A DNA stretch of 64,000 bases, taken from the NCBI GenBank assembly GCA_040755415.1, contig JBFMAZ010000013.1, positions 10,877 through 74,876 of the forward strand. Direction: 5' to 3'. This document shows, one piece after another, positions 11,924 through 61,081 of this stretch; position 1 is the first letter of the stretch; every line of letters begins with the position of its first letter. The notes beneath the pieces were generated by a model, which was given only the letters and a program-made list of their open reading frames with translations, searched no databases and was not told where the DNA came from. The stretch comes from Thermodesulfobacteriota bacterium (GTDB lineage: Bacteria; Desulfobacterota; QYQD01). A program made the translations under genes and the position numbers.

Positions 11924-12077
11924 GAGGCTCTTGCAAAAGTCTTATGATCGGGTTGCCGTCATTCCGGCGAACTCCGGATCAGGTCCGGGGCAGGCGCCGG
12001 AATCCAGTGATTCCGACCAGATTAAGACACTACTGGACACCGGTTTTCACCGGTGTGACGACTTTTGCAAGAGGCTC
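11924..12077. repeat. TIR element family 3, copy 1: TIR GAGGCTCTTGCAAAAGTC...GACTTTTGCAAGAGGCTC, internal GNRA-tetraloop hairpin TTCCGGCGAA(C/A)xCCGGAA and CACCGGTtttcACCGGTG hairpin
   Basis: Near-identical ends and core at 25969-26099; partial related hairpin at 17552-17631. Gives spurious small ORFs ending ...VTPVKTGVQ on minus strand. Confidence 0.7.
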
Positions 12078-12248
12078 ATCTGTAAAGACTTGTATGCCCA
12101 CCCGGGCCTTTCCGCCTTTGTCCTTGACAATCATATCTAACTCATATAAAGCAGAAAAAGTTTTCTTATTTCCCCCTTTTCTTAATGACGGAAGTGGCCG
12201 ATATAGTAATAGATACAAGGGCCTTTGTGCCCTCAAGGAGGAGGATGC

Positions 12249-17444: not shown

Positions 17445-17551
17445 ATATTGATGGTAGAGGTACGAGATTTGCCCTGCTCAATAGTTTTTTGAACCTAGTG
17501 TAGTACGCTATAAATAGCGCAACATATATTCTGGTATTCTGGTAACAAAAA

Positions 17552-17631
17552 CCGTCATTCCTGCGAAAGCAGGAATCCAGAAAGACAAAAAGACTAGATT
17601 CCGGGTCAAGCCCGGAATGACAATTAAAGTA
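17552..17631. repeat. Partial family-3-related hairpin element (GTCATTCCTGCGAAAGCAGGAATCCAG + ATTCCGGGTCAAGCCCGGAATGAC)
   Basis: Two perfect hairpins with GAAA/tcaag loops; related to core of 11924-12077. Confidence 0.55.
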
Positions 17632-17686
17632 ACGGAACTTATAGCGCACTACACTAGACACCTCCAAGTAATTATGAAACAGCCCT

Positions 17687-22635: not shown

Positions 22636-22680
22636 CATGGATATCTACCGCAGAGGCACAGAGGCCGTATAGATAAATGA

Positions 22681-22740
22681 CAAATATCAAAATCCAAAGT
22701 TCAAATCAATGACAAAGTTCAAATGATGAAACATTGACAA
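22681..22740. repeat. AT-rich motif copy (AAAGTTCAAATCAATGACAAAGTTCAAATGA) upstream of 16-heme cytochrome
   Basis: Near-identical 30-mer to 18779-18808. Confidence 0.55.
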
Positions 22741-22778
22741 TACCCGGAAGGTTTATGGAGTGGAGAGATATTAACAAG

Positions 22779-24983: not shown

Positions 24984-25002
24984 TTAGTGTTCATCCGGAA
25001 AC

Positions 25003-25142
25003 CCCGGTTTTTTCCCTCTCCCCTGGCGGGAGAGGGTTAGGGTGAGGGGGATAACCTAGCGATTTTCCTATCAGTTCACCCTCCCCCCCAACCCCCTCCC
25101 GTCGAGGGAGGGGGGAGTTTTTAGGGGTTTCCGGATGGACAC
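25003..25142. repeat. Complex ~140-bp GC-rich palindromic element (CCCTCTCCCCTGGCGGGAGAGGG and CCCTCCCGTCGAGGGAGGG hairpins nested in outer TCCGGAAACCCC...GGGGTTTCCGGA arms)
   Basis: Read directly; shares CCCTCCC/GGGAGGG and CCCCCTCACCC words with MITE core and in-frame palindromes. Confidence 0.6.
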
Positions 25143-25262
25143 TAGTTAGATTAACTGTAACGAGATCTTCTGAGTCATAAAATAATAAACTTAGAACCCC
25201 TCACCGTGGTCTTTAGTCTAGCCACGTGAGGGGTTTTATACTAATACGGAGGGTATAGGATA

Positions 25263-25968: not shown

Positions 25969-26099
25969 GAGCCTCTTGCAAAAGTCTTGTAAATGGCGTT
26001 CTTGTCATTCCGGCGAAAGCCGGAATCCAGTAATTTCAAGCAGTTTAGATACCTCTGGACACCGGTTTTCACCGGTGTGACGATTTTTGCAAGAACCTC
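25969..26099. repeat. TIR element family 3, copy 2
   Basis: GAGCCTCTTGCAAAAGTC...GTCATTCCGGCGAAAGCCGGAATCCAG...CTGGACACCGGTTTTCACCGGTGTGACGATTTTTGCAAGAACCTC; matches 11924-12077. Confidence 0.7.
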
Positions 26100-29003: not shown

Positions 29004-31391
29004 TTAGTTCTCAATTGTACCTATGGACTGAAGTGCGGTCCGGGCCTCTTTAAAAAGGGGATTAACCTTAAGCGCCTTTTGCCATTTTCTCCTAGCCTCA
29101 GCTATGTGTCCCATTTTTTCATAAACCAGGCCCAGATGATAGTAGATTTCGTGATCTTTTTTCATCCGTTGCTGTGCTTCTTTAAGATGGTGGAGGGCTT
29201 GGGGATAATTATTTTTGAGATAATAAATCCGCCCTACTGTCTTCCAATAGAGGCTGTTTTGGTGATCGAGTTCGAGCGCTTTTTGACATAATGTATGGGC
29301 AATTTCCAGGTCGTTTTTTAGTTCAGCATAAAGCATACCCAACCAACTGAAGGAAAAGGCGTCAGCAGGGTTGCTCTTGACCGCCCTTTTAAATGCAGCC
29401 ATAGCATCTTTTTTTAGATTCAAGCCGAGATAAGCCTCACCCAGGTATCGGTATATATACCCCTTAGCATCCGGGCACTTCGCTGCTTTTTGAAAATAAC
29501 CAACGGCCTCCGTCCCTCTTTTCTGTTCTTGCAATAACTTTCCCATCTGAAAGAGGATCTCAAAATGATTCCCATTTAATGAAGCCGCCTGTTGCAGGGC
29601 CAAAAAGGCCTTGTCCGGGATGCCGGTTTTGAGATAGGCCAAACCCAGATTGTATTGGGCCATAAAATTATCTTTTTCCAGGGACAGGGTCTTCTCAAAA
29701 CAGGAAATGGCCCTTTTATACCATTTAAGCCGGGCATAGCAAACGCCCAGGCTATTTAAGAGATTGACGTCTTGCGGATCGAGGGACAGCCCCTTTTTAT
29801 ATTCCATTATGGCGCCATGGATATGGCCTGCATTGAAGAGCATATCCCCGCTTATATTGAGACTTACGGCATTAAAGGCGGTAATGGTGTCCGGGCCAAA
29901 GAAATCAGTATGTACAAGCGCCTTGTAGGCGTTAAAAGGGATCTCCTCTTTTTCATAATTGAGCGCCGGATAGCCGGCCAGGCCCATAGATACGGTCCTG
30001 CCGCACTCTTCCTTGATCTGAGATTTCAAATGCTTTCCTGCAAGAAGGGCCTCTTCCGGGCTAATATCCGGCAGGTAAATGAAAAAGGAGTCCTCAGTAC
30101 ACGGAAGGATCGACTGCCCCGGCGATAACCAGGAGTTTATCTTTTCCAGAAAAGGACTATAATCCCCTCCCCCATCCCGGGCGTCATATCTTGCCAATAT
30201 CAAGGAAAACTTCTTTGTTTTTCTCCACTTCCTTCCCAGTTTATCCGTAACCCGATGAATATTTACTGCCATTTTAAGGCTGATGGTCTCTTCGAGCTCC
30301 CGGGAAAAACAAAGAGGATAATCGAACCTGCCTTTGGCGACGGCCAGAGTCTCTTTACCTTTCTCGATAATAAGATCATATAACTTTTCTGGCGGCAGAT
30401 TCCGGCATTTTTCGTCTGAAAATCCCCCCAACCCCCCTTTACTAAAGGGGGGTGAGGGGGGATTATTTTCATTGTCCTTTGTGTCACTACACGACTTGTG
30501 TGTTTCGTTGCTGTTTATCGGATAGGTCAAAAGCCCTATAGCCGCCTTAATCCCATCCTTAAGGCGTCTTTTATTAAAAAGTTCAAATATAGCCAGACTT
30601 ATATTGCGGCCTCTCTCCTCATCACAAAAGGGCAGGACCAGGGCTAGGGTTGACTTATCTCTGCGGAACAGGCAGGAAAGAGCGATGCCTTTCAGCTCAT
30701 TTTTTATGGCCGGGATAATATCCGCCCAGAATTCACTGCGGCGGCCCGGTTTAAGGCTCGGGTTAGGGCGGCGCTTTAATGGATGATTAAAGAGTATCTC
30801 CATGAAAATTATTGAAAAGTTGGTATGCAAAGCAGGCAAATCCGGAAAGCCCTCTAGTTCGGATACAGGTTTGGTATCCCTGCCCTTCTGGCCCGTAGTT
30901 ATAAGCCGGATAAGGGTATCTTTAAAAAGTCCCGGGGCTAGTGCGCCGCTTTCCGCATCCGTAAAATAGGTCTTATATACCCGGACTTTTTCCAGGATTA
31001 ATTGGCTGAGCTTCGACCATTGGCTGGATAGTATATCTTTGTCAAATGTCCCGTCTGTATCTTTAAGTACAGCTATGCCGAGGGGCTTATTTTGCCATAT
31101 AAAAGGCAAGGATACGGAGTCGGTGTTTTTTTCAACGACAGGGACACTATTTGAAAAGACCTCTTTTATCTGAAAATCCCCCCATCCCCCCTTTAGCAAA
31201 GGGGGGTGAGGGGGGATTATTTTCATTTTGCTTTCGGTAATCAGGGGGCTAAGGATATCCGGCGCACAGTTCGCAGGCCAAAGGAGTACATCCTGGGCCT
31301 GAAAGAGAAGGCTTAAGTCATTCCTTATATCTTCCTGGAAAAGGAATATATCCTGTGGTTCTAATGAAGCTATGGAGGGCCTTTTTTCCAT
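29004..31391 (-). CDS. TPR-repeat protein (C-terminal ~300 aa of TPRs) with N-terminal uncharacterised region carrying two in-frame palindromic-element insertions
   Basis: Multiple 34-aa TPR-like repeats (…AISCFEKTLSLEKDNFMAQYNLGLAYLKTG…); insertions at 30422-30463 and 31177-31217 translated as NNPPSPPFSKGGLGGFSD and KIIPPHPPLLKGGWGDFQ. Confidence 0.75.
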   Translation of the reverse strand: MEKRPSIASLEPQDIFLFQEDIRNDLSLLFQAQDVLLWPANCAPDILSPLITESKMKIIPPHPPLLKGGWGDFQIKEVFSNSVPVVEKNTDSVSLPFIWQNKPLGIAVLKDTDGTFDKDILSSQWSKLSQLILEKVRVYKTYFTDAESGALAPGLFKDTLIRLITTGQKGRDTKPVSELEGFPDLPALHTNFSIIFMEILFNHPLKRRPNPSLKPGRRSEFWADIIPAIKNELKGIALSCLFRRDKSTLALVLPFCDEERGRNISLAIFELFNKRRLKDGIKAAIGLLTYPINSNETHKSCSDTKDNENNPPSPPFSKGGLGGFSDEKCRNLPPEKLYDLIIEKGKETLAVAKGRFDYPLCFSRELEETISLKMAVNIHRVTDKLGRKWRKTKKFSLILARYDARDGGGDYSPFLEKINSWLSPGQSILPCTEDSFFIYLPDISPEEALLAGKHLKSQIKEECGRTVSMGLAGYPALNYEKEEIPFNAYKALVHTDFFGPDTITAFNAVSLNISGDMLFNAGHIHGAIMEYKKGLSLDPQDVNLLNSLGVCYARLKWYKRAISCFEKTLSLEKDNFMAQYNLGLAYLKTGIPDKAFLALQQAASLNGNHFEILFQMGKLLQEQKRGTEAVGYFQKAAKCPDAKGYIYRYLGEAYLGLNLKKDAMAAFKRAVKSNPADAFSFSWLGMLYAELKNDLEIAHTLCQKALELDHQNSLYWKTVGRIYYLKNNYPQALHHLKEAQQRMKKDHEIYYHLGLVYEKMGHIAEARRKWQKALKVNPLFKEARTALQSIGTIEN
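30422..30463. repeat. 42-bp GC-rich palindrome inserted in-frame in TPR gene (copy 2)
   Basis: ATCCCCCCAACCCCCCTTTACTAAAGGGGGGTGAGGGGGGAT; near-perfect inverted repeat with central TTTACTAAA. Confidence 0.75.
31177..31217. repeat. 42-bp GC-rich palindrome inserted in-frame in TPR gene (copy 1)
   Basis: ATCCCCCCATCCCCCCTTTAGCAAAGGGGGGTGAGGGGGGAT. Confidence 0.75.
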
Positions 31392-33608: not shown

Positions 33609-34539
33609 CTATCCTTAACGTAAAAGATTATTTAGTAGCCCTATAAATGGGAATATTTCTTTGTTGAATTGGTACGTTACTCATTTTACATAGGTATGTC
33701 AAGATGTTATCACTTTTATGAGTGCCGGAAGGCATAATCTATCCCTCAAGACCTTAGTATTATTGAAGACATGCAAGAAGTGCCGGAGGGATAACCTATG
33801 GCCTGAATTTCGTGTTACGGTTTATATGCTGTAGAATTTGGTCGTAAATTCTGCTAGGATGTGACGGTGAGATCCGCCTCCGGCGGCATGGGACACGGCC
33901 TGGGTAACGCGCTGCAAGGCATATTAACCATAAGGAATTGTTTGACAATGGACAACGGCAGGATTCGCAAAAGAGATTCGGCAAGGCTGGTGTGGGATAG
34001 TAAGCCCCGCCGTGCGCCGAATCCCAAAGATATAGAGTTTCAGACCGCAGAGGTGGTCATCCTCAACCCTGTACATAGAGGACAGCTCCCTTTATCATTT
34101 AAAGACGGAATCTTGGGTGAGGCGGACATTGACAAGCAGAAGATGAACCGGCTCATCTGGGGTGACAACCTCCTGGCTATGCAGGCCCTGTTGGCCCAGG
34201 GATATGAAGGGAAGATAAACCTTATCTATATCGACCCGCCCTTTGACTCCAAGGCTGATTATTCCCACAAAATGACCATTCCCACTAATCCCTCTGGGAG
34301 AGGGCAGGGTGAGGGTCTTGAATTCACCAAAGAACCCTCGGTCATAGAGCGTCTCGCCTACAAAGACACCTGGGCCGGAGGCACGGACTCTTACCTTGAT
34401 ATGCTCTATCCCAGATTGCAGTTGATGAAAAGGCTGCTGGCAGAGGATGGGAGTATATATGTGCATACAGATTGGCATGTAGGGCATTATGTGAAGGTGC
34501 TGATGGATGAGGTGTTTGGGAAGGAAAATTTTATTAGCG

Positions 34540-34701
34540 GTAACACGTTAGCTGTTTGAAAAGAGCTAGTCGTCCAGAAAACGGCGCCTCGAAAATCCCC
34601 CTTAATCCCCCTTTTTCAAAGGGGGAAATGTTTCTCCTCCCTTTGGAAAAGGGAGGTTGGGAGGGATTTTAAAATACTTTTTCAAACAGCTAAACTGATA
34701 C
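34540..34701. mobile_element. MITE copy 2 (162 bp) inserted in mod; 8-bp flanking direct repeat TATTAGCG
   Basis: TIRs GTAACACGTTAGCTGTTTGAAAAG / CTTTTTCAAACAGCTAAACTGATAC. TATTAGCG at 34532-34539 and 34702-34709. Confidence 0.85.
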
Positions 34702-35665
34702 TATTAGCGAAATAGTATGGAAACGAACTGGCGCGAGGTCGATGTCAAAATATATTAATGCGATTCATGACGCAATTTACATTTATGCAAGAAATATCAA
34801 CAAAATGCTGTGGAACGGATATGTTACTGACTTTTCTGATGAGTATAAAAAGCGTTATTACAGGAATAAGGATGAACGTGGTAGATATTTTCAAGATACC
34901 TCTTTGATAGCTCCGGGCGAAGGATATTTATATGAGTGGAAAGGTATTGCAAAGCGCTGGAGATACAAAAAAGAAAAGATGGAGGAATTAGAAAAAGAAG
35001 GGAGACTTATCTATACAAATAAAGGGGGTGCCAGATATAAAAGATATTTAGATGAAATGCCCGGAGTTGCTCCTCAAGATATATGGTTAGACATCCCGCC
35101 TGTAAACTCACAGGCTTTAGAAGATACTAATTTTGACACCCAAAAACCCGAAGCCCTCCTCGAACGCATCATCAAAGCATCTTCCAATGAGGGCGATCTT
35201 GTCGCTGACTTTTTTAGCGGCTCAGGCACAGCACTTGCTGTTGCGGAAAAACTTAACCGTCGCTGGATTGGCTGCGAGCTTGGGAAGGTGGGCATACAGG
35301 TCACCCGCGCAAGGCTTGTAGAACAGCAGGCCAGGCCCTTCCTTATTGAGAACATAGGCAACTATCAAAGGGAGATGATCTATCTCACCGGCGGCAGGAT
35401 TTATGAGATGCAGCATCTCATCCTCAAGCTTTACGGCGCAACTCCCCGTGATAAATTAAGCGGACTTGGGATAAGAAAGGGTGAAGACGGCATAGAGGAG
35501 CTGGTTTATGTTGGTTACCCGGACCGGCCGGTTACCGCAAGCAAGGCGGAGGAACTGGCCATCCAGGCGCAAAAACTAGACGGCAGGGGCTATAAGAGAC
35601 TCATAATCCTGGGCTGGGATTATGAATACAACTATCATCAGGCGCTTGAATCAAGAAAGAAGGCA

Positions 35666-35707
35666 ATCCCCCCTCACCCCCCTTTACCAAAGGGGGTAAG
35701 GGGGGAT
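35666..35707. repeat. 42-bp GC-rich palindrome inserted in-frame in mod (encodes IPPHPPLPKGVRGD)
   Basis: ATCCCCCCTCACCCCCCTTTACCAAAGGGGGTAAGGGGGGAT. Confidence 0.75.
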
Positions 35708-36294
35708 TTTGTTGAGGTTATAAGCCGGGACATCCCGCCGGATATATACGATTATTTAAAAAAGGCAAGGACAGAGGAAGACATCGAAGCCCTTTCAGAC
35801 AAGGTTACCTTCTATGAAAGGCCATACCTGAAGATGGATGAACCAAGGATAAGCGATTTAAAAGACGGCAAGGTTGAGATTAGCCTGTCCATGAAACGCT
35901 ACGTCCTAATGGACATTCCCATAAGCCAGACCTCCAAGAAAGGGCAGGAAGACTATGCCGCCCTGATGAAGATAGCAAAGGATAATTTTGCGGTGCTTAT
36001 CGACTACTGGGCGGTTGACTGGGACTATGACGGTTTTACCTTCAAGAGCCAGTGGCGGGCATTCCGGGGCAACGGCAAAAAGGCCAGGACCGTTACCACC
36101 GAGGCAAAGGAGATTTTGGAAAAGAAAAGACGCATGATTGCTGTGAGGGTGGTGGATATATTCGGGAATGATGCCGGGGCTACGGTTGATTTACAATCCT
36201 GAAATAAGCAAGGGGATTATTGCATGATTTATGCGTAATCTGCAATAAGGGCCGATGTTATTGCAATATTCATCAATAAGCAAAAGAGGCTGGT

Positions 36295-45470: not shown

Positions 45471-45630
45471 CAAATCCGAAATTCGAATATCGAAATTCGA
45501 AGCAAATCCAAATTCCTAATGTCTCAATGTTCAAAACCGCAGCATGAACAATTCGTTTTGGCAATTCGGATTTTGATCATTTGATATTGTTTCGGGATTC
45601 GTGCTTCGGATTTCGAATTTGAAATCACGC
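45471..45630. repeat. AT-rich palindromic element family 2 (cgaaat/ttcgaa words), diverged copy
   Basis: ccaaatccgaaattcgaatatcgaaattcgaagc ... gggattcgtgcttcggatttcgaatttgaaatc arms around ~70-bp centre. Confidence 0.65.
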
Positions 45631-49614: not shown

Positions 49615-50433
49615 ATGACTTATGTTACCATGAAACAATTATTGGAAGCCGGGGTCCACTTTGGTCACCAGACCAAGCGGTGGAATCCCAAGATGAAACC
49701 TTACATTTTCGGCACTAGAAACGGTATCTATATTATCGACCTGCAAAAGACCGTGCAATTATTCAAGGCTGCTTACGATTTTATTGCGCAGGCGACAAGC
49801 GAGGGAAAATCTGTTTTATTTGTGGGAACGAAGAAACAGGCCCAGGAGTCTATTGTAGAAGAAGCCAAGCGCTGCGGTATGTTTTATGTGAACAATCGCT
49901 GGTTGGGAGGTACCTTAACTAATTTCCAGACTATCCGTAAAAGCATTGACCGCCTGAAGACCCTGGAGGCCATGAAAGAGGATGGAAGCATCCAGCGCTT
50001 CACAAAAAAAGAAATCCTTCAAATGGAAAAGGAGATCGTTAAGCTGGAGAAATCACTGGGGGGTATCAAAGAAATGGAAAAATTGCCCGGGGCCCTCTTC
50101 GTGGTTGATCCCCGGAAGGAGTATATTGCCATAAGCGAGGCCCGGAAGCTGGGTATCCACGTTGTTGCTATTGTTGATACTAATTGTGATCCCGACGGCA
50201 TTAATTACTTAATACCCGGAAATGATGATGCGATAAGGGCTATCAGGCTTCTCACCTCACGAATAGCCGATGCCTGCCTGGAAGGCAAAGGGCGTTTAGA
50301 GGAGGCCCTTCAGTCCGAAAGTGATAAAGCTGCTGCTGCGCTTGAGACCGAGTCTCCGGCAGAGGCGGGGTTGGAAGGGGATACTGGTCTACAAGAAGAA
50401 TTGTTACCGGCCTCAGCAGAGGATGAAGGTTAA
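49615..50433 (+). CDS. rpsB: 30S ribosomal protein S2
   Basis: [33 protein letters not shown]... Confidence 0.95.
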
Positions 50434-50472
50434 CCCTGGCGATGTCAAGTTGAGAAGGAAGCGACAATTGGG

Positions 50473-50633
50473 AAATTCTAAATCCGAAACACGAAACTCG
50501 AAACAAATTCAAATGACCAAATGAGGGCAATGACCAAAACAAAAGATCGAAGAAGTTGCTGATAGACGTTTCAAACATTCGATATTTGAATTTCGGATTT
50601 GTTTCGGATTTCGGATTTCGATATTCGGATTTA
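50473..50633. repeat. AT-rich palindromic element family 2, full copy, in rpsB-tsf spacer
   Basis: gaaattctaaatccgaaacacgaaactcgaaacaaattcaaatgaccaaatga...gtttcaaacattcgatatttgaatttcggatttgtttcggatttcggatttcgatattcggattt; ~85% identical to 55908-56025. Confidence 0.75.
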
Positions 50634-50713
50634 GGTGCAGTTTTGCCACTCTGTGCGCTTCGTGGTTAATCTTTTGATAATAATATCTCAGTTGTTAAGG
50701 GGGAAGAACATAA

Positions 50714-51316
50714 GTGGAAATTTCGGCAAATGCTATAAAGGAATTGCGGGATAAAACCAATGCGGGCATCATGGATTGTAAGCTAGCTCTTAAGGAATGC
50801 CAGGGAGATATGGAAAAGGCAGTTGCCTACCTTCGTAAAAAGGGATTGGCCGTGGCCGTTAAACGCGCGGGCCGGGCGATGACCGAAGGAGCTGTTCAGG
50901 CTTATATCCATGCCGGCGGCAAAATAGGAGTGCTGGTAGAGGTCAATTGTGAAACAGATTTTGTGGCCAAGACAGACCAATTCCAGGAATTTGTTAAGAA
51001 TATAAGTATGCATATCGCTGCGGCCAGTCCTCTTTATCTCCGCAGGGAGGATGTCCCGGCCGCGGTGATAGAAAAAGAGAAGGAGATTTACCGCGCTCAG
51101 GCCGTTGAAACCGGAAAGCCGGAGAAGATCCTGGATAAGATAGTTGAGGGACGGCTAGAGAAATATTATGGTGAAATCTGCCTCTTAGAGCAAAAATACG
51201 TCCGCGATCCTGACCTTACCATCCAGGATGTCTTAAATGAGTTAATAACCAAGACCGGAGAAAATGTTTCTATCCGGCGCTTTATACGGTACCAACTCGG
51301 TGAGAATGGTGAATAA
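50714..51316 (+). CDS. tsf: Elongation factor Ts (short form, GTG start)
   Basis: [28 protein letters not shown]... Confidence 0.9.
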
Positions 51317-51321
51317 GTCTG

Positions 51322-52047
51322 ATGACCCGGCCCACCTATAAACGAGTCTTACTAAAATTAAGTGGTGAGGCCCTGATGGGCGGTCAATCCTTTGGCATAA
51401 GCCACGATGTCCTGACTTTTATCTCTGAAGAGATTAAAGAGATAATGGGCCTGGGCGTACAACTGGCGGTAGTCATTGGTGGCGGCAATATCTTTCGGGG
51501 CATAGCCGGTGCTTCCCATGGCATGGATAGGGCCTCTGCCGACTATATGGGCATGTTGGCTACGGTGATAAATGCCCTGGCCCTCCAGGATGCCCTGGAA
51601 AAAAAGGGCGTCCAGACCCGGGTGCAGACTGCCATAGAGATGCGGGAAGTAGCCGAACCCTATATAAGACGGCGCTCGATCCGGCATCTGGAAAAAGGGA
51701 GGGTGGTTATATTCGGGGCCGGTACCGGTAACCCTTATTTTACCACGGACACCACCGCTGCCCTCCGCGCCATGGAGATTCATGCCGATGTTATACTTAA
51801 GGCCACGCGAGTGGACGGGGTCTATGACCGTGATCCTCTTAAGGATAAAAAGGCCAAGAAGTTCCGTAAGTTGACCTACATGGATGTATTGCAGAGAAAT
51901 TTACGCGTTATGGATGCCACGGCTATTTCTTTAGCTATGGATCATCAAAAGCCTATAATAATCTTCAATATTCAAAAAAAGGGAAGTATTAAAAAGGCTA
52001 TCTTTGGAAAACCAGTCGGAACGATAGTGCAGGGTGCCGGACAATGA
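51322..52047 (+). CDS. pyrH: UMP kinase
   Basis: ...[11 protein letters not shown]..., ...[11 protein letters not shown].... Confidence 0.95.
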
Positions 52048-52601
52048 AGGACGAGGTCTTAAAAGATTTAAAGGCTAAAATGGAAAAGGCCATCGAGGTC
52101 TTTAAGCATGAACTGGCCAGGGTGCGTACCGGAAGGGCCTCTGTCTCCTTGCTTGACGGCATCAAGGTGGACTATTATGGCTCCATGTTGCCGCTTAACC
52201 AGGTGGCCTCCCTTACTGTACCGGAGCCCAGGCTTATTACTATTCAGCCCTGGGATACTAATGCCCTGGCCAATATTGAGCGGGCTATACTTAAATCAGA
52301 ACTGGGACTTACACCGGCAAATGACGGGAAAATTATACGGATAGCCATCCCGCCTCTTACAGAAGAACGGCGGAAAGAGATCGTTAAATTAGCTAAAAAG
52401 ATTGCTGAGGAATATCGGGTTATCCTTCGGAACTTACGCCGCGATGCCAATGAAGAACTTAAGGATTTAAAAAAAGAAAAGGTAATTTCAGAGGATGAAT
52501 CCTTTGCTGCGCAGGAAGAGGTACAAAAGATAACAGATACCTATATTCAAAAGGTGGAGCAGCTTTACACTGAAAAGGAGAAAGAGATATTGGCGTTTTA
52601 A
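52044..52601 (+). CDS. frr: Ribosome recycling factor
   Basis: 185 aa, ...[24 protein letters not shown].... Confidence 0.95.
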
Positions 52602-52605
52602 TAAA

Positions 52606-52665
52606 TAGCTCATGGCTGATAGCTGATAGCTCATGGTTAAGAGCTATGAGCCATGAGCTATGAGC
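52606..52665. terminator. Long imperfect hairpin after frr (possible terminator/mRNA stabiliser)
   Basis: TAGCTCATGGCTGATAGCTGATAGCTCATGGttaaGAGCTATGAGCCATGAGCTATGAGC followed by gaTTTTcTcT. Confidence 0.4.
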
Positions 52666-52732
52666 GATTTTCTCTCCCTGGAAATTATCCGGTCATTCTC
52701 TAACTTATCTCTCGATGTAGAGGTCGGAGACT

Positions 52733-53503
52733 TTGCCTCGCTCAGATAGCCCGTTGTTAGAACCAACAAAATTGCCCCGGCATTTAGCCATAATCATGGA
52801 TGGAAATGGACGCTGGGCAAAATTGCGTTCTCTACCCCGTATTGCCGGTCACCGGCAAGGTGCTGAATCTGTACGCGAGGTAGTCCGGGCTTGCCGGGAA
52901 ATAGGGATCAAGTTTCTTACCTTATATGCCTTTTCTCAAGAAAACTGGCAACGTCCGCCGGCTGAAGTCAAGGCCCTTATGGGTCTCCTTTCTGATTATT
53001 TAGAAAAAGAACTGGCGGAGATGCTCGCCAATGGGATATCGCTAAGGACTGTCGGGGATATAAAAAGGCTCCCCCCTCCTATTTATGAGCTATTGTTGCG
53101 TACGATTAAACAAACGAAATCTAATCAGGATATGGTTCTCACCCTGGCCTTAAGTTACAGCGGCCGTGATGAGATCGTGCGTGCCGCGCGGGAGATGGCC
53201 CGCAGGGTAAAACAGGGCATCTTACAACCAGATGAAATAAGCGAAGAATATATAAGCCAGACCCTGGATACCGCCACCGCCGGCCTACCTGATCCAGACT
53301 TCCTTATAAGAACCAGCGGCGAATATCGTATAAGTAATTTTCTCATCTGGCAAACGGCCTACACGGAAATTTATATCACCGCCGTCTTATGGCCAGACTT
53401 CCGTAGAGAGGACCTTATACAGGCACTTCTGGATTACCAGGGAAGAGAGCGGCGTTTTGGCCTGACCAGTGAACAGATTGAAAGCGCCCATGCAGCACCT
53501 TAA
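52733..53503 (+). CDS. uppS: Isoprenyl transferase (undecaprenyl-diphosphate synthase)
   Basis: HLAIIMDGNGRWA..., ...FSQENWQRP..., C-terminal ...ERRFG. Confidence 0.9.
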   Translation: MPRSDSPLLEPTKLPRHLAIIMDGNGRWAKLRSLPRIAGHRQGAESVREVVRACREIGIKFLTLYAFSQENWQRPPAEVKALMGLLSDYLEKELAEMLANGISLRTVGDIKRLPPPIYELLLRTIKQTKSNQDMVLTLALSYSGRDEIVRAAREMARRVKQGILQPDEISEEYISQTLDTATAGLPDPDFLIRTSGEYRISNFLIWQTAYTEIYITAVLWPDFRREDLIQALLDYQGRERRFGLTSEQIESAHAAP

Positions 53504-54296
53504 ACGTATAATAACCGCTCTGATTGCTACGCCCCTTCTAATAGCCATTATATGGTACGGGCCCAGGTCTGTTTTTTTGTTGGTGATTCTGGCCACGGTA
53601 GTGATTAGTTTGCTGGAGTACTACGCCCTGGCCAGGAGAACTGATCTCTCCCTCCCGGTTTATCTCGGCATCTTGTTAGGCGGCCTCATCGTCCTTTCCA
53701 GTTATAACTTTTCCTTCCCCTGCACCCTGGCCATGCTTTTCTTAGTCACGGCCTCGAGTCTTGCATACTATTTGTTCACTTATGAGCCTCATCCCAAGGT
53801 CATTCATTCAATGGGCATCTTCATTTCTGGTCTGGTATATGCGGCCTTTTTTCTATCCCACCTGGTTCTTATAAGACACCTGGCCATGGGACGTATCTGG
53901 ATCTTGTTCCTCTTGGCCGTAGTCTTTGCAGGTGATGCCGGCGCTTACTGCGTGGGCGTTCTCTTGGGACGTCGCAAGCTTTATCCGCGCGTAAGCCCGG
54001 GAAAGACCATAGAAGGAGCTATCGGGGGACTGGCGGCCAGTATCGGCGCAGCCTATCTCATGAGGATCTATTTTATCCCCTGGATGACTGTGAGACAGGT
54101 TATTTTTCTGGCCCTTTCCCTGGGGATTGCCGCTCAAATTGGAGACCTTGTGGAGTCTATGTTTAAACGGTCTGCTCAGGTGAAAGACTCAGGGAAACTC
54201 TTTCCAGGGCATGGGGGGATGCTGGATCGCATAGATGGGGTTATCCTGGCCGCACCCGTCCTGTTTTACGAGCTGGTGTTTTTCATCCGGCCATAA
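53469..54296 (+). CDS. cdsA: Phosphatidate cytidylyltransferase
   Basis: Multi-TM; C-terminal CTP-transferase signature ...SMFKRSAQVKDSGKLFPGHGGMLDRIDG.... Confidence 0.9.
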   Translation: MNRLKAPMQHLKRIITALIATPLLIAIIWYGPRSVFLLVILATVVISLLEYYALARRTDLSLPVYLGILLGGLIVLSSYNFSFPCTLAMLFLVTASSLAYYLFTYEPHPKVIHSMGIFISGLVYAAFFLSHLVLIRHLAMGRIWILFLLAVVFAGDAGAYCVGVLLGRRKLYPRVSPGKTIEGAIGGLAASIGAAYLMRIYFIPWMTVRQVIFLALSLGIAAQIGDLVESMFKRSAQVKDSGKLFPGHGGMLDRIDGVILAAPVLFYELVFFIRP

Positions 54297-54360
54297 GCTG
54301 GTTGTGAATTATATATCGATGTCATTGGCTTAGAGCGGGTGGAGCGATTTTTCTAATAAT

Positions 54361-54700
54361 TTCGAAATCCGAAGCACGAAATACGAAACAAATTCAAATG
54401 CCTAAAATACAAAATTCAAAATATAATTTGGAGTAACATTTTAGGTTTTTGAAAAATATACCTAAGCAAGGCGCTATAAGGGCCAAAATCCCCCTCAATC
54501 CCCCTTTTCCAAAGGGGGAAGTGTTTCTCCTCCCTTTGGAAAAGGGAGGTTGGGAGGGATTTAAGAATACTTTTTCAAACAGCTAAACTGATACAATTTG
54601 GAAGATCGCGCCCTTGGTTCGCTGAAATTGAATAAGGTTTTGAAAATTTGATATTTGAATTTCGGATTTGTTTCGGATTTTGATATTCGATATTCGAATT
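54361..54700. repeat. Composite: family-2 AT-rich palindrome arms (54361-54425 and 54646-54700) with a 5'-truncated MITE (54486-54594) nested at its centre
   Basis: Left arm tcgaaatccgaagcacgaaatacgaaacaaattcaaatgcc...; right arm ...tttgaatttcggatttgtttcggattttgatattcgatattcgaa; centre carries aaaatccccctcaatcccccttttccaaaggggg...ctttttcaaacagctaaactgatac. Confidence 0.7.
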
Positions 54701-54739
54701 TTTTAAAATATATTAGCTTAGAAGGGGCGGGGCGGCCTT

Positions 54740-55909
54740 TTGAAAAGACTATCTATCCTGGGTTCTACCGGCTCTATTGGGCGCAACGTCCTGGAAGTGG
54801 TAGCGCGTTTTCCGGAACGTTTCCAGGTAGCCGGCCTTTCTGCCGGCAAGAACATCGGATTGTTGATAGAACAGATTGAACGATTTAGGCCGCGCCTGGT
54901 CTCTGTTCAGGATGAGAGACTGGCTGTGGAGTTAAAGGCCCGGATCCCAGCGGGGCTGGGCGTGGAGGTTGCTTCCGGTATAAACGGGTATAGAGAGGTG
55001 GCTACGCTGCCGGAAGTTGATATGGTCGTCTCGGCTATGGTGGGTGCAGCCGGTCTCGTGCCCACTTATGAGGCCATCTGTGCGGGGAAGAATATTGCCC
55101 TGGCCAATAAAGAGGTCCTGGTTACCGCCGGTTCGCTGATTATGAAAGCAGTCAGGGATAAGGGCGTCTCCATTATTCCTGTGGATAGTGAGCATAACGC
55201 TATTTTCCAGTCCCTGTCAGGACACCGTAAAGAAGATGTCAGAAGGATCATACTTACAGCCTCAGGTGGACCGTTCTTACATTATTCTCCTGAGATGATG
55301 CACAGCATAACCCCGGCCGAGGCCTTAAAACATCCCAACTGGCAAATGGGCAGGAAAATAACTGTTGACTCTGCCTCTTTGATGAACAAGGGACTGGAGG
55401 TCATAGAGGCCAGGTGGCTTTTTGATCTCTCCGTCGAGCAGATAGCCGTGCAAATACACCCACAGAGTATAGTGCATTCTATGGTGGAGTATATAGATGG
55501 TTCCATAATTGCTCAACTGGGCATGCCGGACATGCGTATCCCGATTGCCTATGCCCTTTCCGTCCCGGAGCGGATCGATATGGGGCTTCCCCGGTTGGAC
55601 CTCCCGTCAGTAAATAACCTGACTTTTTTAGAACCGGATATGGACAAATTTCCGTGCCTGCGGCTGGCGTATGAGGCCTGTAAGCAGGGGGGGACCCTGC
55701 CCGTTGTCCTTAATGCGGCCAACGAAGTAGCGGTAGATGCCTTTCTCGAAGGCAGTATTCGATTCACGGATATTGCCCGTGTCGTGGAAGGTACCATGTA
55801 TGGTCTGGAAACTCCTGTAATCAATTCGATCGAAGATGTTCTCAGGGTAGATCATCTGGCCAGAATCCGGGCTGAAGAAGAGGTTAAAGCTTATTCACCG
55901 CAGAGATGA
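54740..55909 (+). CDS. dxr: 1-deoxy-D-xylulose 5-phosphate reductoisomerase (TTG start)
   Basis: MKRLSILGSTGSIGRNVLEVV N-terminal NADPH motif; 389 aa. Confidence 0.9.
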   Translation: MKRLSILGSTGSIGRNVLEVVARFPERFQVAGLSAGKNIGLLIEQIERFRPRLVSVQDERLAVELKARIPAGLGVEVASGINGYREVATLPEVDMVVSAMVGAAGLVPTYEAICAGKNIALANKEVLVTAGSLIMKAVRDKGVSIIPVDSEHNAIFQSLSGHRKEDVRRIILTASGGPFLHYSPEMMHSITPAEALKHPNWQMGRKITVDSASLMNKGLEVIEARWLFDLSVEQIAVQIHPQSIVHSMVEYIDGSIIAQLGMPDMRIPIAYALSVPERIDMGLPRLDLPSVNNLTFLEPDMDKFPCLRLAYEACKQGGTLPVVLNAANEVAVDAFLEGSIRFTDIARVVEGTMYGLETPVINSIEDVLRVDHLARIRAEEEVKAYSPQR

Positions 55910-56025
55910 AAAATTCGAAATCCGAAGCACGAAACTCGAAACAAACTCAAATGACCAAATGAAAGCAATGACTAAAACGAAAAATCGAAGGCGTTGCTGA
56001 TGGACGTTTCGAACATTCGATATTC
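55908..56025. repeat. AT-rich palindromic element family 2, copy in dxr-rseP spacer
   Basis: gaaaaattcgaaatccgaagcacgaaactcgaaacaaactcaaatgaccaaatgaaagcaatgactaaaacgaaaaatcgaaggcgttgctgatggacgtttcgaacattcgatattcggattt. Confidence 0.75.
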
Positions 56026-56102
56026 GGATTTGGTCGCGGCTATGCCGCGCTGTGTACTCTGTGGTTAGGCTTTGAAATACCGTGTGTAGGGAAAGAGGAT
56101 AG

Positions 56103-57170
56103 ATGACGACTGTTTTTACCGTGATAATAGTCCTGGGCGTATTGATCCTGGTGCATGAACTGGGACATTTTTTGCTGGCCAAAGTCTTTAAGGTCAGGGT
56201 CGAAAAATTTTCTTTGGGCTTTGGCCCCAGGATATGGGGCAAGGTGGCTGGTGAAACGGAATATCGAATATCAGCCGTACCCCTCGGTGGTTATGTCAAA
56301 CTTTTTGGCGAAAACCCCGGAGAAACCATCGAAGTTGATGAAAGGAACAGATCCTTTATTCATAAGAAGATATGGCAACGGGGGCTTATCGTAGCAGCAG
56401 GGCCTTTTTCCAATCTTATTTTTGCCTTTTTCATATTTTTTATCACTTTCATGATCTTCGGGCAACCTACACTACCAACGACCATAGGGGGCGTGGAAGA
56501 TAGGCTACCTGCGCAAGCGGCCGGCCTTAGGCCCGGCGATCGGATCACCCATATCAACGGCCGCCCCGTAAAAGAGTGGGATGAACTTGCCGGGATGGTC
56601 CGCAAGGGCGGTAAACAGCCGCTGGATATTTACGCGGTACGCGACGGCAAGGCCTTCAGGGTACAGATAACGCCGGTTATAACTGCGCATCGCAATATAT
56701 TTGGTGAGGAAGTTATGGTCCCGGTGATCGGGGTATCGGCTTCTGACGATATTGTTATGGACAAGATGAATCCCATCGAGGCTTTTGTAGCCGGAATCGA
56801 CCGGACCGGAAAAATTGTATATATAACATATGTAAGTATTATAAAACTGGTACAGCGGATTGTGCCGGTGTCTACCCTGGGGGGGCCTATTCTTATTGCT
56901 CAATTAGCCGGTGAGCAGGCACAGGCAGGGATGGTTCCACTTCTCTTTTTTGTGGCCTTATTGAGCATCAATCTGGGTGTTCTAAACTTGTTACCAATAC
57001 CCATCCTGGATGGTGGACATCTTCTGTTCCTGGGTATCGAGCTGATCCTGGGGCGGCCGGTCAGTCTCAAAAAAAGGGAGATTGCCCAGCAAATCGGGCT
57101 GGTTATTCTTATTTCCCTTATGGCCGTGGTCTTTTACAATGATATCGTTCGCCTCCTGGTAAAAGGGTGA
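56103..57170 (+). CDS. rseP: RIP metalloprotease RseP (site-2 protease, HExxH + PDZ)
   Basis: VLILVHELGHFLLAK (HExxH in TM1), PDZ ...GLRPGDRITHINGRPV..., LDG motif ...PILDGGHLLF.... Confidence 0.9.
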   Translation: MTTVFTVIIVLGVLILVHELGHFLLAKVFKVRVEKFSLGFGPRIWGKVAGETEYRISAVPLGGYVKLFGENPGETIEVDERNRSFIHKKIWQRGLIVAAGPFSNLIFAFFIFFITFMIFGQPTLPTTIGGVEDRLPAQAAGLRPGDRITHINGRPVKEWDELAGMVRKGGKQPLDIYAVRDGKAFRVQITPVITAHRNIFGEEVMVPVIGVSASDDIVMDKMNPIEAFVAGIDRTGKIVYITYVSIIKLVQRIVPVSTLGGPILIAQLAGEQAQAGMVPLLFFVALLSINLGVLNLLPIPILDGGHLLFLGIELILGRPVSLKKREIAQQIGLVILISLMAVVFYNDIVRLLVKG

Positions 57171-57186
57171 ATAGAGCGGGTAATAT

Positions 57187-57891
57187 TTGAAGATTCTGGC
57201 TGTCGATACGGCTACTCATACCGGTAGTGTAGCCCTCACGGATAATGAAGTAGTACTGGCTGAATACAACCTCTTCAGTAAAGAGACGCATAGCCGGCGT
57301 TTATTGCAGGCGGTAGATTATCTTTTGGCCCAAACCAGATTAGCCTTGAACGATATTGATGGCCTGGCCGTGACTATAGGGCCGGGCAGCTTTACCGGTA
57401 TCCGGATCGGCCTGGCTACTTTCAAGGGATTGGCCCTGGCCACCGGTAAACCGGTCATGGGCATATCAACTCTGGATGCCCTGGCCGCAAACTTTCCCGT
57501 GGCCGACCGTCCTGTGTTTCCGGTTATTGATGCCCGAAAGAGAGAGGTTTTTACGGCTGCTTATTATCCAGATGAGGCAGGTCGCTTGATAAAGGCCTCG
57601 CCTGAGTTAGTCCTCTTGCCGCAGGACCTTGCCGCACGGATAGAAGAGCGGGTGATACTGGTCGGAGATGGTCTCTGGTCTTACGGAGAGTTCTTTGAAA
57701 AGGAGCTTGGTGACAGGGCATTCTTTGCACCCGGCTCCCTTTCTTTTATCCGGGCTTCTAATGTGGCTTTCCTGGCTGAAGAGAAGTTTAAGGCCGGAGA
57801 GCAGGCCGATATTGTTACCATGGTTCCTACATATATCCGGCCATCCGAAGCCGAGCTAAAATGGGCCGGAAAAGATGGGGGCATATCCTGA
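57187..57891 (+). CDS. tsaB: tRNA threonylcarbamoyladenosine biosynthesis protein TsaB
   Basis: MKILAVDTATHTGSVAL... YeaZ/TsaB N-terminal fold; 234 aa. Confidence 0.85.
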   Translation: MKILAVDTATHTGSVALTDNEVVLAEYNLFSKETHSRRLLQAVDYLLAQTRLALNDIDGLAVTIGPGSFTGIRIGLATFKGLALATGKPVMGISTLDALAANFPVADRPVFPVIDARKREVFTAAYYPDEAGRLIKASPELVLLPQDLAARIEERVILVGDGLWSYGEFFEKELGDRAFFAPGSLSFIRASNVAFLAEEKFKAGEQADIVTMVPTYIRPSEAELKWAGKDGGIS

Positions 57892-57938
57892 TCAGCTTTA
57901 AGGCATAAAACAAATGTACTAAAATCGATGATAATCAG

Positions 57939-57968
57939 TTGACAAATCAGGCGGTTATTTCTTATAGT
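57939..57968 (+). promoter_or_regulatory. Strong sigma70-like promoter: -35 TTGACA, 18-nt spacer, -10 TATAGT, driving DUF465-ilvBNC leader
   Basis: cagTTGACAaatcaggcggttatttctTATAGTggac. Confidence 0.5.
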
Positions 57969-58017
57969 GGACAAGGTTCAATGAACTCGTAAAAGGTCAA
58001 ATTTACCGCAGAGGTCG

Positions 58018-58074
58018 CCTGTCTGCGTCTGCCTGTGCGTGTCCGCACGCAGACAGGTGCAACGCACAGGCAGG
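58018..58074 (+). promoter_or_regulatory. Leader RNA structure with interleaved inverted repeats (pseudoknot or mutually exclusive hairpins)
   Basis: seg1 CCTGTCTGCGT(58018-28), seg2 CTGCCTGTGCGT(58029-40), seg1' ACGCAGACAGG(58047-57), seg2' ACGCACAGGCAG(58062-73): 1 pairs 1', 2 pairs 2' in 1-2-1'-2' order. Confidence 0.45.
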
Positions 58075-58197
58075 CTGAGAACGCCGAGATAATATTCAAT
58101 AGTCAGTTGTAACGGACAACGGACAATGAGTGCTCAGCGGTGAAAAGGCTTTTTTACGGATTGATAAAGTTTAGTTCGCGAGGGATGGTAATAAGGT

Positions 58198-58416
58198 ATG
58201 GAAGAAAAAGACAAGGCGTTGATGGCTCTTTGGATAGATAAAGATGAAGAGCTTAAGAGGGCGGTAAAGGAACATCAATCGCTGGAGAGAAAACTGGAGG
58301 AGTTTAACCAGAGGCCTTATCTAACTACAGAAGAAACCATGGAGAAGAAGCATATTCAGAAGCTGAAACTAGCCGAGAAGGATAAAATAATGGCCATATT
58401 GGCCAAGTATCGATAG
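58198..58416 (+). CDS. DUF465 (YdcH-like) small coiled-coil protein
   Basis: 72 aa ...LKRAVKEHQSLERKLEEFNQRPYLTTEETMEKKHIQKLKLAEKDKIMAILAKYR matches DUF465 pattern. Stop TAG at 58414-58416 is followed 1 nt later by ilvB ATG at 58417 (adjacent, not overlapping). Confidence 0.65.
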   Translation: MEEKDKALMALWIDKDEELKRAVKEHQSLERKLEEFNQRPYLTTEETMEKKHIQKLKLAEKDKIMAILAKYR

Positions 58417-60114
58417 GTGATTCTTATGAAACTGACAGGTGCACAGATTTTGATCGAATGTTTGAAAAAGGAAGGCGTGGATCTGATCTTTGGATTTCCA
58501 GGTGGGGCGGTAATAGACATCTATGACGAACTCATGAAGTCTCCCATCCGTCACGTACTGGTAAGGCATGAGCAGGCGGCGGTCCATGCCGCTGATGCCT
58601 ACGCCCGTGTAACCGGCAAAGTGGGTGTGGTTCTCGTCACCTCCGGGCCGGGAGCTACAAATACGGTTACTGGCATTGCGTCGGCTTATGGGGATTCCAT
58701 ACCCGTGGTGGTTATGACCGGCCAGGTGCCCACCAAGCTCATTGGTAATGACGCCTTTCAAGAGGTGGATATTGTCGGCATTACCCGGCCATGTACCAAG
58801 CACAATTATCTGGTAAAGAATGTTAAAGATGTCGCACAGACTGTAAGGGAAGCCTTTCACCTGGCCCGCTCAGGACGGCCCGGGCCGGTGTTAATGGATT
58901 TACCAAAGGACGTAATGGTTGACAGGACTGAATTTAAGTATCCGGAAGTCATCAAGATGCGTACCTATAATCCGACCTATGAGGCGCATCCGGGCCAGAT
59001 AGAAAAGGCCGGCAAGTTAATCGTCCAATCCAGGCGCCCGGTCCTCTATGCCGGTGGCGGGATCATAGCCTCCAATGCGGCAGCCGAGTTGACCGAGTTG
59101 GCCACCCTCGCACAGATACCAACTACTGCTACTTTGATGGGTTTAGGCGGGTTCCCGGGCACGCATCCGCTCTGGATGGGAATGCTGGGAATGCATGGCA
59201 CCTATTGTTCGAATATGGCTGTGGCGAATTGTGACCTCCTTATCGCGGTAGGGTCTCGATTTGATGACCGGGTTACCGGTAAACTGGATGCCTTTGCTCC
59301 CCATGCCAAGATTATTCATATTGATATTGATCCCACGTCGATCAGCAAAAATGTCAGGGTGGATGTCCCGATAGTGGCTGACTGCAAAAACGCCCTTGGA
59401 AAGCTCGTCACTTTCCTCAAAGGGGAAAAGGGGATAAACTGGAAAGAAAAACATGAAGAGTGGCTGGCCCAGGTGCGTGATTGGGATAAAAAACATCCCC
59501 TTTCCTATAAAGAAGAAAAAGGGGTAATAAAGCCGCAGTATGTAGTAGAAAAACTTTATGAACTCACGAAGGGTAAGGCGATTATTACCACAGAAGTCGG
59601 TCAAAACCAGATGTGGGCCGCGCAATTTTATAAGTTTGCCGAGCCGCGTTCCCTTATGACCTCAGGTGGCCTGGGAGTTATGGGATATGGATTCCCGGCC
59701 GCCATTGGGGCCCAACTGGCAGCGCCGGATCGGACAGTCATAGACATAGCCGGAGACGGCAGTATCCAGATGAACATCCAGGAGATGGCCACGGCCATGG
59801 AACAGCGGTTGCCGGTAAAAATTGCCATCCTAAATAATCAGTATCTGGGTATGGTGCGCCAATGGCAAGAGCTCTTTTACGGAAAGCGGTATGCCGCCAC
59901 CTCACTGGCTACCGCACCTGATTTCGTCAAATTGGCGGAGGCCTATGGCGCGGTGGGGCTCCGGGCCACGAAGCCGGAAGAGGTGGAGCCGGTTATCAAG
60001 AAGGCCCTGAAAACCAAGAACCTTGTGATCATGGACTTCGTCATTCCGCAAGAGGAAAAGGTTTATCCCATGGTGCCGGCTGGTAAGGCAACTACCGAAA
60101 TGCTCTTGGTTTAA
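58417..60114 (+). CDS. ilvB: Acetolactate synthase large subunit
   Basis: ThDP motif ...[16 protein letters not shown]...[12 protein letters not shown]..., FAD region; 565 aa. Confidence 0.9.
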
Positions 60115-60251
60115 CAACGGGTAACTGTTCAGATAGCCACTAAGGCACAAAGGCACAAAGGCCTGCACTTAGATGTTTTGAAAGGATAAATCTCTAATCT
60201 TAGTGTCTTGGTGTCTTAGTGGTCGAATAGTTAAAAAACGGGAGATTGCTC

Positions 60252-60801: not shown

Positions 60802-60994
60802 GTAACACTTTAGCTGTTTGAAAAGAGCTAGTCGTCCAGAAAACGGCGCCTCGAAAATCCCCCTTAATCCCCCTTTTTCAAAGGGGGAATGTAGGGGGAT
60901 CCCCTTTTTCAAAGGGGGAAATGTTTCTCCTCCCTTTGGAAAAGGGAGGTTGGGAGGGATTTTAAAATACTTTTTCAAACAGCTAAACTGATAC
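60802..60994. mobile_element. MITE copy 4 (193 bp; has 31-bp internal duplication of a hairpin module); 8-bp direct repeat GTAATTTG
   Basis: TIRs as in other copies; GTAATTTG at 60794-60801 and 60995-61002; extra GGGGGATCCCCTTTTTCAAAGGGGGAA module. Confidence 0.8.
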
Positions 60995-61081
60995 GTAATT
61001 TGCAACTTGCAACTTGTAACTATCCTATTTGCTGATGACTAATGACCAGTGACGTTGCCTATAGATAAGGGAGGAAGATGG

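Follow-up and report, generated by a model that had tools for sequence, protein, structure and literature searches.

What separates cdsA from dxr in this genome, and in what order were the parts of that sequence put together? In the window (the whole 64-kb stretch of DNA that was analysed), a first-pass annotation had read the spacer as a nested repeat, in which a MITE truncated at its 5′ end had taken the place of the centre of an AT-rich palindrome belonging to a dispersed family, here called family 2. Its assignment of the flanking genes to cdsA and dxr agrees with Pfam, and the locus is laid out as follows.

53469-54296, plus strand: cdsA, phosphatidate cytidylyltransferase, the upstream gene (Pfam CTP_transf_1, E 7e-61)
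54297-54739, unstranded: cdsA-dxr spacer, 443 nt
54655-54879, plus strand: spurious ORF of 74 codons
54740-55909, plus strand: dxr, the downstream gene (Pfam DXP_reductoisom and its C-terminal domains)

The dxr start at 54740 is kept in orthologues, and the DXP_reductoisom match runs from residue 4. The 74-codon ORF had been regarded as an artefact of the repeat, and we agree: it begins in the right arm of the palindrome and overlaps dxr, with its conserved start, out of frame.

The inner part of the spacer is a complete MITE. A repeat finder aligned 54433-54594 without gaps over 162 nt with 2729-2890 and 34540-34701, which are copies 1 and 2 of the same MITE in the window, and copy 3, the one between cdsA and dxr, has the same length of 162 nt. 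Its parts, including the terminal inverted repeats (TIRs) and the target-site duplication (TSD), are these.

54425-54432, unstranded: left TSD of copy 3, AATTTGGA, 8 bp, abutting the TIR
54433-54594, plus strand: MITE copy 3, complete, variant subfamily, 162 nt, in full-length register with copy 1
54433-54455, plus strand: left TIR of copy 3, GTAACATTTTAGGTTTTTGAAAA, 20/23 against the family consensus GTAACACTTTAGCTGTTTGAAAA
54456-54484, plus strand: 29-nt variant subterminal segment of copy 3
54486-54562, plus strand: MITE core hairpin, C5/G5-rich, with two 36-nt arms and a 5-nt loop
54572-54594, plus strand: right TIR of copy 3, TTTTCAAACAGCTAAACTGATAC, identical at 23/23 positions in 4/4 window copies
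54595-54602, unstranded: right TSD of copy 3, AATTTGGA, identical to 54425-54432, abutting the TIR

A four-way alignment together with inspection of the ends gave GTAACAC(T/G)TTAGCTGTTTGAAAA as the left end of the MITE and TTTTCAAACAGCTAAACTGATAC as the right end. In copy 3 the two TIRs are complementary at 83% over 24 nt (54433-54456 against 54571-54594). The 25-mer CTTTTTCAAACAGCTAAACTGATAC, which ends at 54594 in copy 3, is present at 2866, 34677, 54570 and 60970, four times in the window as against 0 times in 100 shuffles, and all four window copies are bracketed by perfect 8-bp TSDs. Copy 3 has a predicted fold of -68.8 kcal/mol (z -6.9), and 54433-54594 contains no ORF of at least 50 codons. 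It has the features by which prokaryotic MITEs are recognized, being small (under about 500 bp) and non-coding, with both TIRs, a TSD of constant length and dispersed copies.

How, then, did copy 3 come to be read as truncated? Compared with copy 1 segment by segment, it matches at 20 of 23 positions in the left TIR (1-23), 5 of 29 in the variant segment (24-52), 82 of 87 in the core (53-139) and 23 of 23 in the right TIR (140-162). Identity to the common MITE type therefore falls sharply to the left of 54485, which speaks for a truncation. To the right of that point the first-pass annotation was sound: homology to the MITE extends well beyond the short G5/C5 words (54485-54594), and the right TIR is kept. 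The truncation at 54486 itself is contradicted by the left TIR at 54433, exactly 162 nt from the right end, and by the presence of both TSDs. We looked for a residual TSD around 54486 and found none there; it sits at 54425-54432. The divergent segment has the same length in the other copies and recurs, at 27 of 29 positions, in a copy from another genome (L056, QYQD01000020.1) that shares 97.5% identity with copy 3 across 122 nt and lies at an unrelated, non-palindromic site. Because it recurs in another genome, the segment marks a subfamily and not decay. Judged from these alignments, copy 3 is a full-length member of a variant MITE subfamily and no deletion derivative; with three mismatches in its left TIR, it may have lost its mobility.

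The density of this MITE is four copies in 64 kb, the other three being the following.

2729-2890, plus strand: MITE copy 1, 162 nt, TSD CAAATCTC, apical in a heptamer palindrome
34540-34701, plus strand: MITE copy 2, 162 nt, TSD TATTAGCG, interrupting a DNA methyltransferase gene
60802-60994, plus strand: MITE copy 4, 193 nt including an internal duplication of 31 nt, TSD GTAATTTG, apical in a heptamer palindrome

The gene split by copy 2 encodes an N6/N4 DNA methyltransferase and lies at 33861-36202. Deleting 34540-34709 (copy 2 and one TSD) joins two ORFs into a single methyltransferase ORF of 724 codons, and the Pfam N6_N4_Mtase profile is divided between the halves around copy 2 (1-74 and 93-213). 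Copies 1 and 2 differ at one of 162 positions, and the MITE family has therefore been mobile recently; the disruption of the methyltransferase gene also looks recent. The window also holds further MITE-like elements, about 155-165 nt long and bounded by terminal inverted repeats of 19-36 nt, at 11923-12078 and 25993-26099 (a pair), at 24985-25144 and at 17495-17657; the pair carries GTCATTCCGGCGAA...CCGGAATC hairpin modules, which are present too in several loci from other genomes. Unrelated to the MITE finding, CxxCH haem-binding repeats at 20632-24011 indicate multihaem cytochrome genes, which fits a metal- or sulfur-respiring anaerobe.

The outer part of the spacer is a family-2 palindrome, and the claim that the repeat is truly nested, with a member of the MITE family inside, held up. 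The family-2 stretches in question are listed here.

45472-45620, unstranded: family-2 copy in reverse orientation, from the repeat comparison
50473-50633, unstranded: reference family-2 palindrome upstream of tsf, uninterrupted, missing at the same site in the related contig L177
54358-54432, unstranded: left half of the palindrome around copy 3, with a heptamer-repeat arm (about 54358-54399) and the left 33 nt of the centre
54603-54703, unstranded: right half of the same palindrome, with 50 nt of centre and a heptamer-repeat arm (about 54653-54703), 86% identical to 50568-50632
55911-56031, unstranded: family-2 copy between dxr and rseP, with the left arm, the centre and, from the right arm, only the final ~16 nt, 88% identical to 50473-50593

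The AT-rich arms, 54358-54406 and 54637-54701, share 86-88% identity with those of the 50473-50633 element, and the left half is 86-88% identical to 50473-50521 and 55911-55959. The centre had been described as replaced; instead it is split, since removal of the MITE and one TSD leaves 33 nt (54400-54432) and 50 nt (54603-54652), or 83 nt in all, compared with 78 nt in 50473-50633. The excised element has a predicted fold in which both arms pair (-41.5 kcal/mol, z -2.6), and the insertion point of copy 3 is about 8 nt left of the geometric centre of the palindrome.

Another MAG carries a family-2 relative (L091) that is 86.6% identical over 82 nt to the left half (54354-54432) and runs as ...ATGATTTGGAAGACC... 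unbroken through the target. Therefore, AATTTGGA|AGATC is native family-2 centre sequence. This supports the reading that copy 3 entered a pre-existing family-2 sequence, with a TSD that consists of family-2 centre sequence. Of the order of events first proposed, the succession of family 2 and then MITE stands for the sequences, and the partial deletion that was to follow falls away, the MITE being of full length with its TIRs and TSD intact. The converse idea, that the MITE made the flanking palindromes, was rejected, as L091 has the palindrome without the MITE.

Tandem Repeats Finder reports a period of 7 in this palindrome at 54363-54388, 54404-54423 and 54682-54697 and in other family-2 copies at 50485-50505, 50590-50632 and 45472-45501; the period-7 units across the arms are AAATTCG, CGAAACA, ATTTCGG, CGAAATA and GATATTC. 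The copies share conserved termini (AAATTCGAAATCCGAA... and ...TTCGATATTCGGATTT), and the right-arm region of the dxr-rseP copy is gapped in the alignment. Neither a TSD nor a defined transposition signature was found among the aligned family-2 copies. Direct repeats of ~20 nt beside the block (GGCTTAGAGCGGGTGGAGCG / AGCTTAGAAGGGGCGGGGCGG) were considered as a general family-2 TSD and rejected, the other copies being without them. Family 2 is a set of dispersed AT-rich imperfect palindromes with heptanucleotide arms (AAATYCG / CGRATTT) and a centre of about 80 nt. Heptamer arms also characterize the palindromes flanking MITE copies 1 and 4, as well as others in the window, and heptamer-repeat palindromes are a general feature of the genome. 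Further intergenic palindromes with arms of 7-nt (some 8-nt) tandem repeats lie at 52605-52668, 58111-58126, 60137-60222, 61000-61021 and 2690-2728 / 2899-2945; their units are ATAGCTG, AACGGAC, CACAAAGG, TTGCAAC and CTGAWNG.

The account that we consider very probable has two layers: a complete 162-bp MITE inserted in a family-2 palindrome, with no later deletion. The outer layer (54358-54432 and 54603-54703) is a member of the palindrome family, and the inner layer (54433-54594) is a MITE that a transposase acting in trans would have put into the left-central part of it. This transposase would make 8-bp staggered cuts, as the TSD suggests, and would favour a symmetric AT-rich target of roughly aTTn|nAwwwwTn|nAAt, and repair of the staggered ends would have duplicated AATTTGGA. 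No deletion followed, and the seeming truncation is a 29-nt subterminal segment that differs between two MITE subfamilies.

Did the nesting take place between cdsA and dxr? Two metagenome contigs (L098 and L177) share 90-92% nucleotide identity with the window at 50100-60100. In both, the cdsA-dxr spacer is 22 nt long (CTTGCAATAAAGGTATGCCACA), as against 443 nt in the window, and contains neither palindrome nor MITE. By comparison with these relatives, the cdsA-dxr block is lineage-specific, and it places a doubly nested hairpin of ~420 nt inside an essential operon that the relatives keep tightly packed. The family-2 site upstream of tsf is empty in L177 and holds a different heptamer palindrome in L098, and the dxr-rseP site is empty in L098 and holds other sequence in L177. 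Family 2 is thus variably present at operon sites, and the operon spacers are therefore hot spots for the gain and loss of palindromic modules. In the spacers at 50449-50655, 55906-56071 and 57978-58167 of the tsf-pyrH-frr-uppS-cdsA-dxr-rseP region, whole palindromic modules differ from those of L098 and L177; a GC-rich 55-nt hairpin at 58018-58074 is missing from L098, and the insert between the arms of an outer inverted repeat (CACCGCAGAG...CTCTGTGGTTA) is not the same in L177 as in the window.

These comparisons leave some room for a composite origin, in which the nesting arose elsewhere and copying or recombination later brought the nested unit, or a block larger than it, to the space between cdsA and dxr; the nesting would in that case be uninformative about how events followed one another here. 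Both orthologous loci are without family 2 and the MITE together, with no intermediate state seen, and the flanks of the block (54297-54357 and 54704-54739) are unlike the 22-nt ancestral spacer, which points to a spacer remodelled wholesale. The presence or absence of family 2 at three sites among close relatives also implies that these palindromes are themselves gained or lost. Nevertheless, we think a composite origin unlikely: a second copy of the nested composite was found neither in the window nor in the loci from other genomes, family 2 is without TSDs or a defined transposition signature, and the relatives are only two and at ~90% identity, so that missing intermediates are to be expected. 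Comparison with L091 shows, as far as sequences can, that the palindrome preceded the MITE, and it does so for the sequences and not for the cdsA-dxr locus specifically.

The TIR of this MITE is found well beyond the window. A degenerate TIR pattern scanned against species-representative genomes gave at least 97 matching stretches; the matches listed are mainly in MAGs of Deltaproteobacteria / Thermodesulfobacteriota and also include Candidatus Brocadia and Kuenenia (anammox), other Planctomycetota, Nitrospinota and Syntrophorhabdus. Many of the elements that share the TIR are 66-300 nt long, with unrelated cores and perfect 8-bp TSDs, and such TSDs were found in 29 further elements from other genomes. 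Copies with the same core occur in at least seven other MAGs (L035, L037, L048, L050, L056, L072 and L092). As aligned here, these elements are a TIR-defined superfamily with one 23-bp TIR and many cores. The MITE family is widespread and appears to be undescribed, and no description of this TIR family was found in the papers searched. Of wider interest is that many different MITE cores, in Thermodesulfobacteriota, Nitrospinota and anammox Planctomycetota, have in common a single 23-bp TIR for which no parent IS is known.

We searched for an autonomous element with these TIRs in about 1.2 Mb (177 loci from other genomes), in the window and in viral contigs and found none. The viral contigs gave 0 matches, a search for TIR pairs separated by 450-4000 bp and flanked by a TSD with at least 7 of 8 positions in agreement found none, and the inward ORFs beside solo TIRs, at 39 loci, are ordinary genes or further MITEs. 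At two contig ends, L052 (5142-5397) and L024 (JAFDED01, Meg19_1012_Bin_441), a MITE-type TIR has, ~108 nt inward of it, the start of an ORF, MEPVVFRYRCLNLRPEDICFIQQVIAQWRGKGRSHISRVICRAWGWVQP, that is cut by the contig end. This 49-residue start has no Pfam or NCBIfam match and no detected homologue, and it is the sole candidate start of an autonomous element. We infer an autonomous partner, its transposase family and a DDE-type mechanism.

A search of plasmids returned the C5/G5 core module alone and no annotated IS. The module has 77-91% matches in plasmid p2 of Planktothrix agardhii (L178, NZ_LR882940.1, 250-370), where it lies within an annotated 4-kb N-6 DNA methylase CDS, and in an Acinetobacter plasmid (L179, NZ_CP090068.1, 1500-1591). 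With matches in cyanobacterial and Acinetobacter plasmids, the small palindromic module therefore occurs across phyla. C6/G6 palindromic modules of ~50 nt (AAAATCCCCCCAACCCCCCTTTACTAAAGGGGGGTGAGGGGGGATT), of the same kind as the MITE core, are found inside long ORFs of the window, at 30419-30473 and 31173-31227 in the ORF of a 795-codon TPR protein (29004-31391, minus strand) and at 35656-35710 in the methyltransferase ORF. Their in-frame translations are IPPHPPLLKGGWGDF, NPPSPPFSKGGLGGF and IPPHPPLPKGVRGDF, and they resemble the in-frame Rickettsia palindromic elements. One genome thus carries both heptamer-repeat palindromes and small C/G-rich palindromic modules that are read in frame within proteins.

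Why did copy 3 insert where it did? To the first reading, its position suggested that the MITE prefers hairpin centres. Our sample comprised 33 TSD-bearing insertions (4 in the window and 29 from other genomes). Their TSDs are 76% A+T (background 52.5%), with A at position 2 in 25 of 33 and T at position 7 in 24 of 33, and the flanks are mirrored, with TT upstream and AA downstream; the result is the symmetric consensus aTTn|nAwwwwTn|nAAt. The TSD of copy 3 agrees with it in part (G at position 7).

Insertion at palindromes could also be directed by structure: the transposase would recognise extruded hairpins or cruciforms and insert at the apex, so that the palindrome would be a cause and not a by-product of AT-richness. 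Copies 1 and 4 argue for this, in each of which the TSD forms the loop at the apex of a strong palindrome and 13 of 19 mirrored positions are complementary, against a mean of 5.8. Among intergenic AT-rich 8-mers in the window, 2.6% qualify as an apical loop, which gives P of about 0.002 for two of three copies, and the same-core copies L048 and L072 also lie between inverted heptamer arrays. Against it, the reconstructed empty sites of the 29 relatives from other genomes show no excess of palindromy over controls matched for AT content (p = 0.65 for spanning pairs), and they have less structure. Moreover, copy 2 is in coding sequence, L056 is at a non-palindromic site, and copy 3 sits off-centre in a weak palindrome. 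The number of sites is very small, and the symmetric AT-rich consensus, which heptamer palindromes meet well, would suffice to explain most of the pattern; we therefore regard structure-directed targeting as improbable. A preference for hairpin centres is thus weakly indicated, by copies 1 and 4, L048 and L072 and not by the 29 TSD-bearing relatives, and is local at best, to a handful of sites.

A bolder proposal, which we rate as quite improbable, is that the MITE subfamily and its transposase prefer the apices of inverted heptanucleotide arrays that are gained and lost between relatives, stacking ‘Russian-doll’ spacers in essential operons (uppS-cdsA-dxr-rseP). If true, it would mean structure-directed targeting by a TSD-generating transposase, together with an STRR-like repeat system outside cyanobacteria, for a TIR present in at least three phyla.

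Is the block instead a selected cis-regulatory or structured-RNA element (a terminator, attenuator or promoter cassette), and not mobile DNA? The predicted fold of 54340-54720 is very stable (-122.5 kcal/mol, z -7.3), and as RNA the nested hairpin (-122 kcal/mol) may affect cdsA-dxr co-transcription. Terminator-like hairpins, which are weak, occur in the core, and there is one promoter-like match.

54680-54709, plus strand: sigma-70-like match TTGATA-18-TAAAAT facing dxr, a consensus match only, 10/12, where shuffles of the AT-rich region average 1.2 sites

Counts of both kinds of site are within shuffle expectation. At gathering thresholds Rfam gave 0 matches in the window, and at permissive thresholds only generic miRNA-precursor hairpin models far under the cut-offs; no Rfam family matched, and the idea that the block is an established riboswitch or another structured RNA already described was rejected. 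Since this element, TSDs included, also disrupts a coding gene (copy 2), and a 22-nt spacer suffices in close relatives, we hold a regulatory origin to be very unlikely. Least credible is the first-pass model of a MITE inserted into family 2, followed by deletion of its 5′ part and of the 70-bp centre to leave 54486-54594, which accords with a centre sequence unlike that of the 50473 copy but would need the TIR and TSD at 54425-54455 to be products of chance (for example, family-2 centres with GTAACATTTTAGG without a MITE), and which sits badly with a divergent segment of unchanged length and with an 83-nt centre that is kept, its left part homologous to L091. For annotation, the two-layer account means that the cdsA-dxr spacer is mobile or repetitive DNA and not a gene, that ORF 54655-54879 is to be dropped, and that the complete MITE at 54433-54594 is to be entered with its TSD.

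Biologically, this is one more case of a MITE nested in an intergenic palindrome, an instance of ordinary mobile-DNA nesting, and none of its extensions opens a long-standing question. In the passages of PMC3184786 and PMC10969869 that deal with Nezha of Anabaena/Nostoc and Chunjie of Geobacter uraniireducens, bacterial MITEs are small, non-coding and multicopy, with TIRs, a fixed TSD and a stable hairpin; they are mostly intergenic and sometimes interrupt genes, and filled and empty sites are found between relatives. Copy 3 is like them in its TIRs, fixed-length TSD, multiple copies and very stable predicted hairpin. Chunjie is described there as 178-235 bp long, with TIRs of 21 bp and direct repeats of 9 bp (PMC3184786). 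By that description, and not by sequence, our MITE is set apart, with its 23-bp TIRs, 8-bp TSD and 162 bp.

Family 2 has several counterparts among intergenic repeats. ERIC-type repeats of the Enterobacteriaceae are imperfect palindromes of about 130-180 nt in transcribed intergenic operon spacers, variably present, with no TSD and no known transposase. Family 2 is like them in form, with no sequence similarity, arms of low-complexity heptamers and a far more AT-rich composition. Cyanobacterial STRR sequences are intergenic tandem heptanucleotide repeats, with CCCCAGT, TTGGTCA and CAACAGT as canonical units in a cyanobacterial host. The family-2 arms are of the STRR type in being tandem arrays of a 7-nt unit in intergenic DNA, whereas their unit is AAATYCG / CGRATTT and the nearest repeat matches listed are in MAGs of Deltaproteobacteria / Thermodesulfobacteriota and not in cyanobacteria. 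Judged by those matches, the host would be a bacterium resembling Thermodesulfobacteriota. The TAACTGA heptamer arrays of Beggiatoaceae are likewise intergenic tandem heptanucleotides, of 2-7 units, and close relatives have shorter spacers without arrays (PMC4679880). Unlike both, family 2 consists of inverted pairs around a ~80-nt centre that is conserved between copies and genomes. REP and BIME sequences are GC-rich imperfect palindromes of 20-40 nt mobilised by RAYT (TnpA-REP). Family 2 is neither, with its length of about 160-180 nt, its AT-richness and its heptamer-repeat arms.

The nesting itself has its closest parallel in IS1397 / ISKpn1 and IS621, which insert into REP (palindromic unit) sequences and so give nested repeats (PMC3184786). 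Those are autonomous IS with strict targeting of GC-rich REP stem-loops, whereas the element here is a non-autonomous MITE whose target is symmetric, AT-rich and only loosely defined, and most of its relatives lie outside palindromes. Like them, copy 3 would be a mobile element inside a pre-existing extragenic palindrome.
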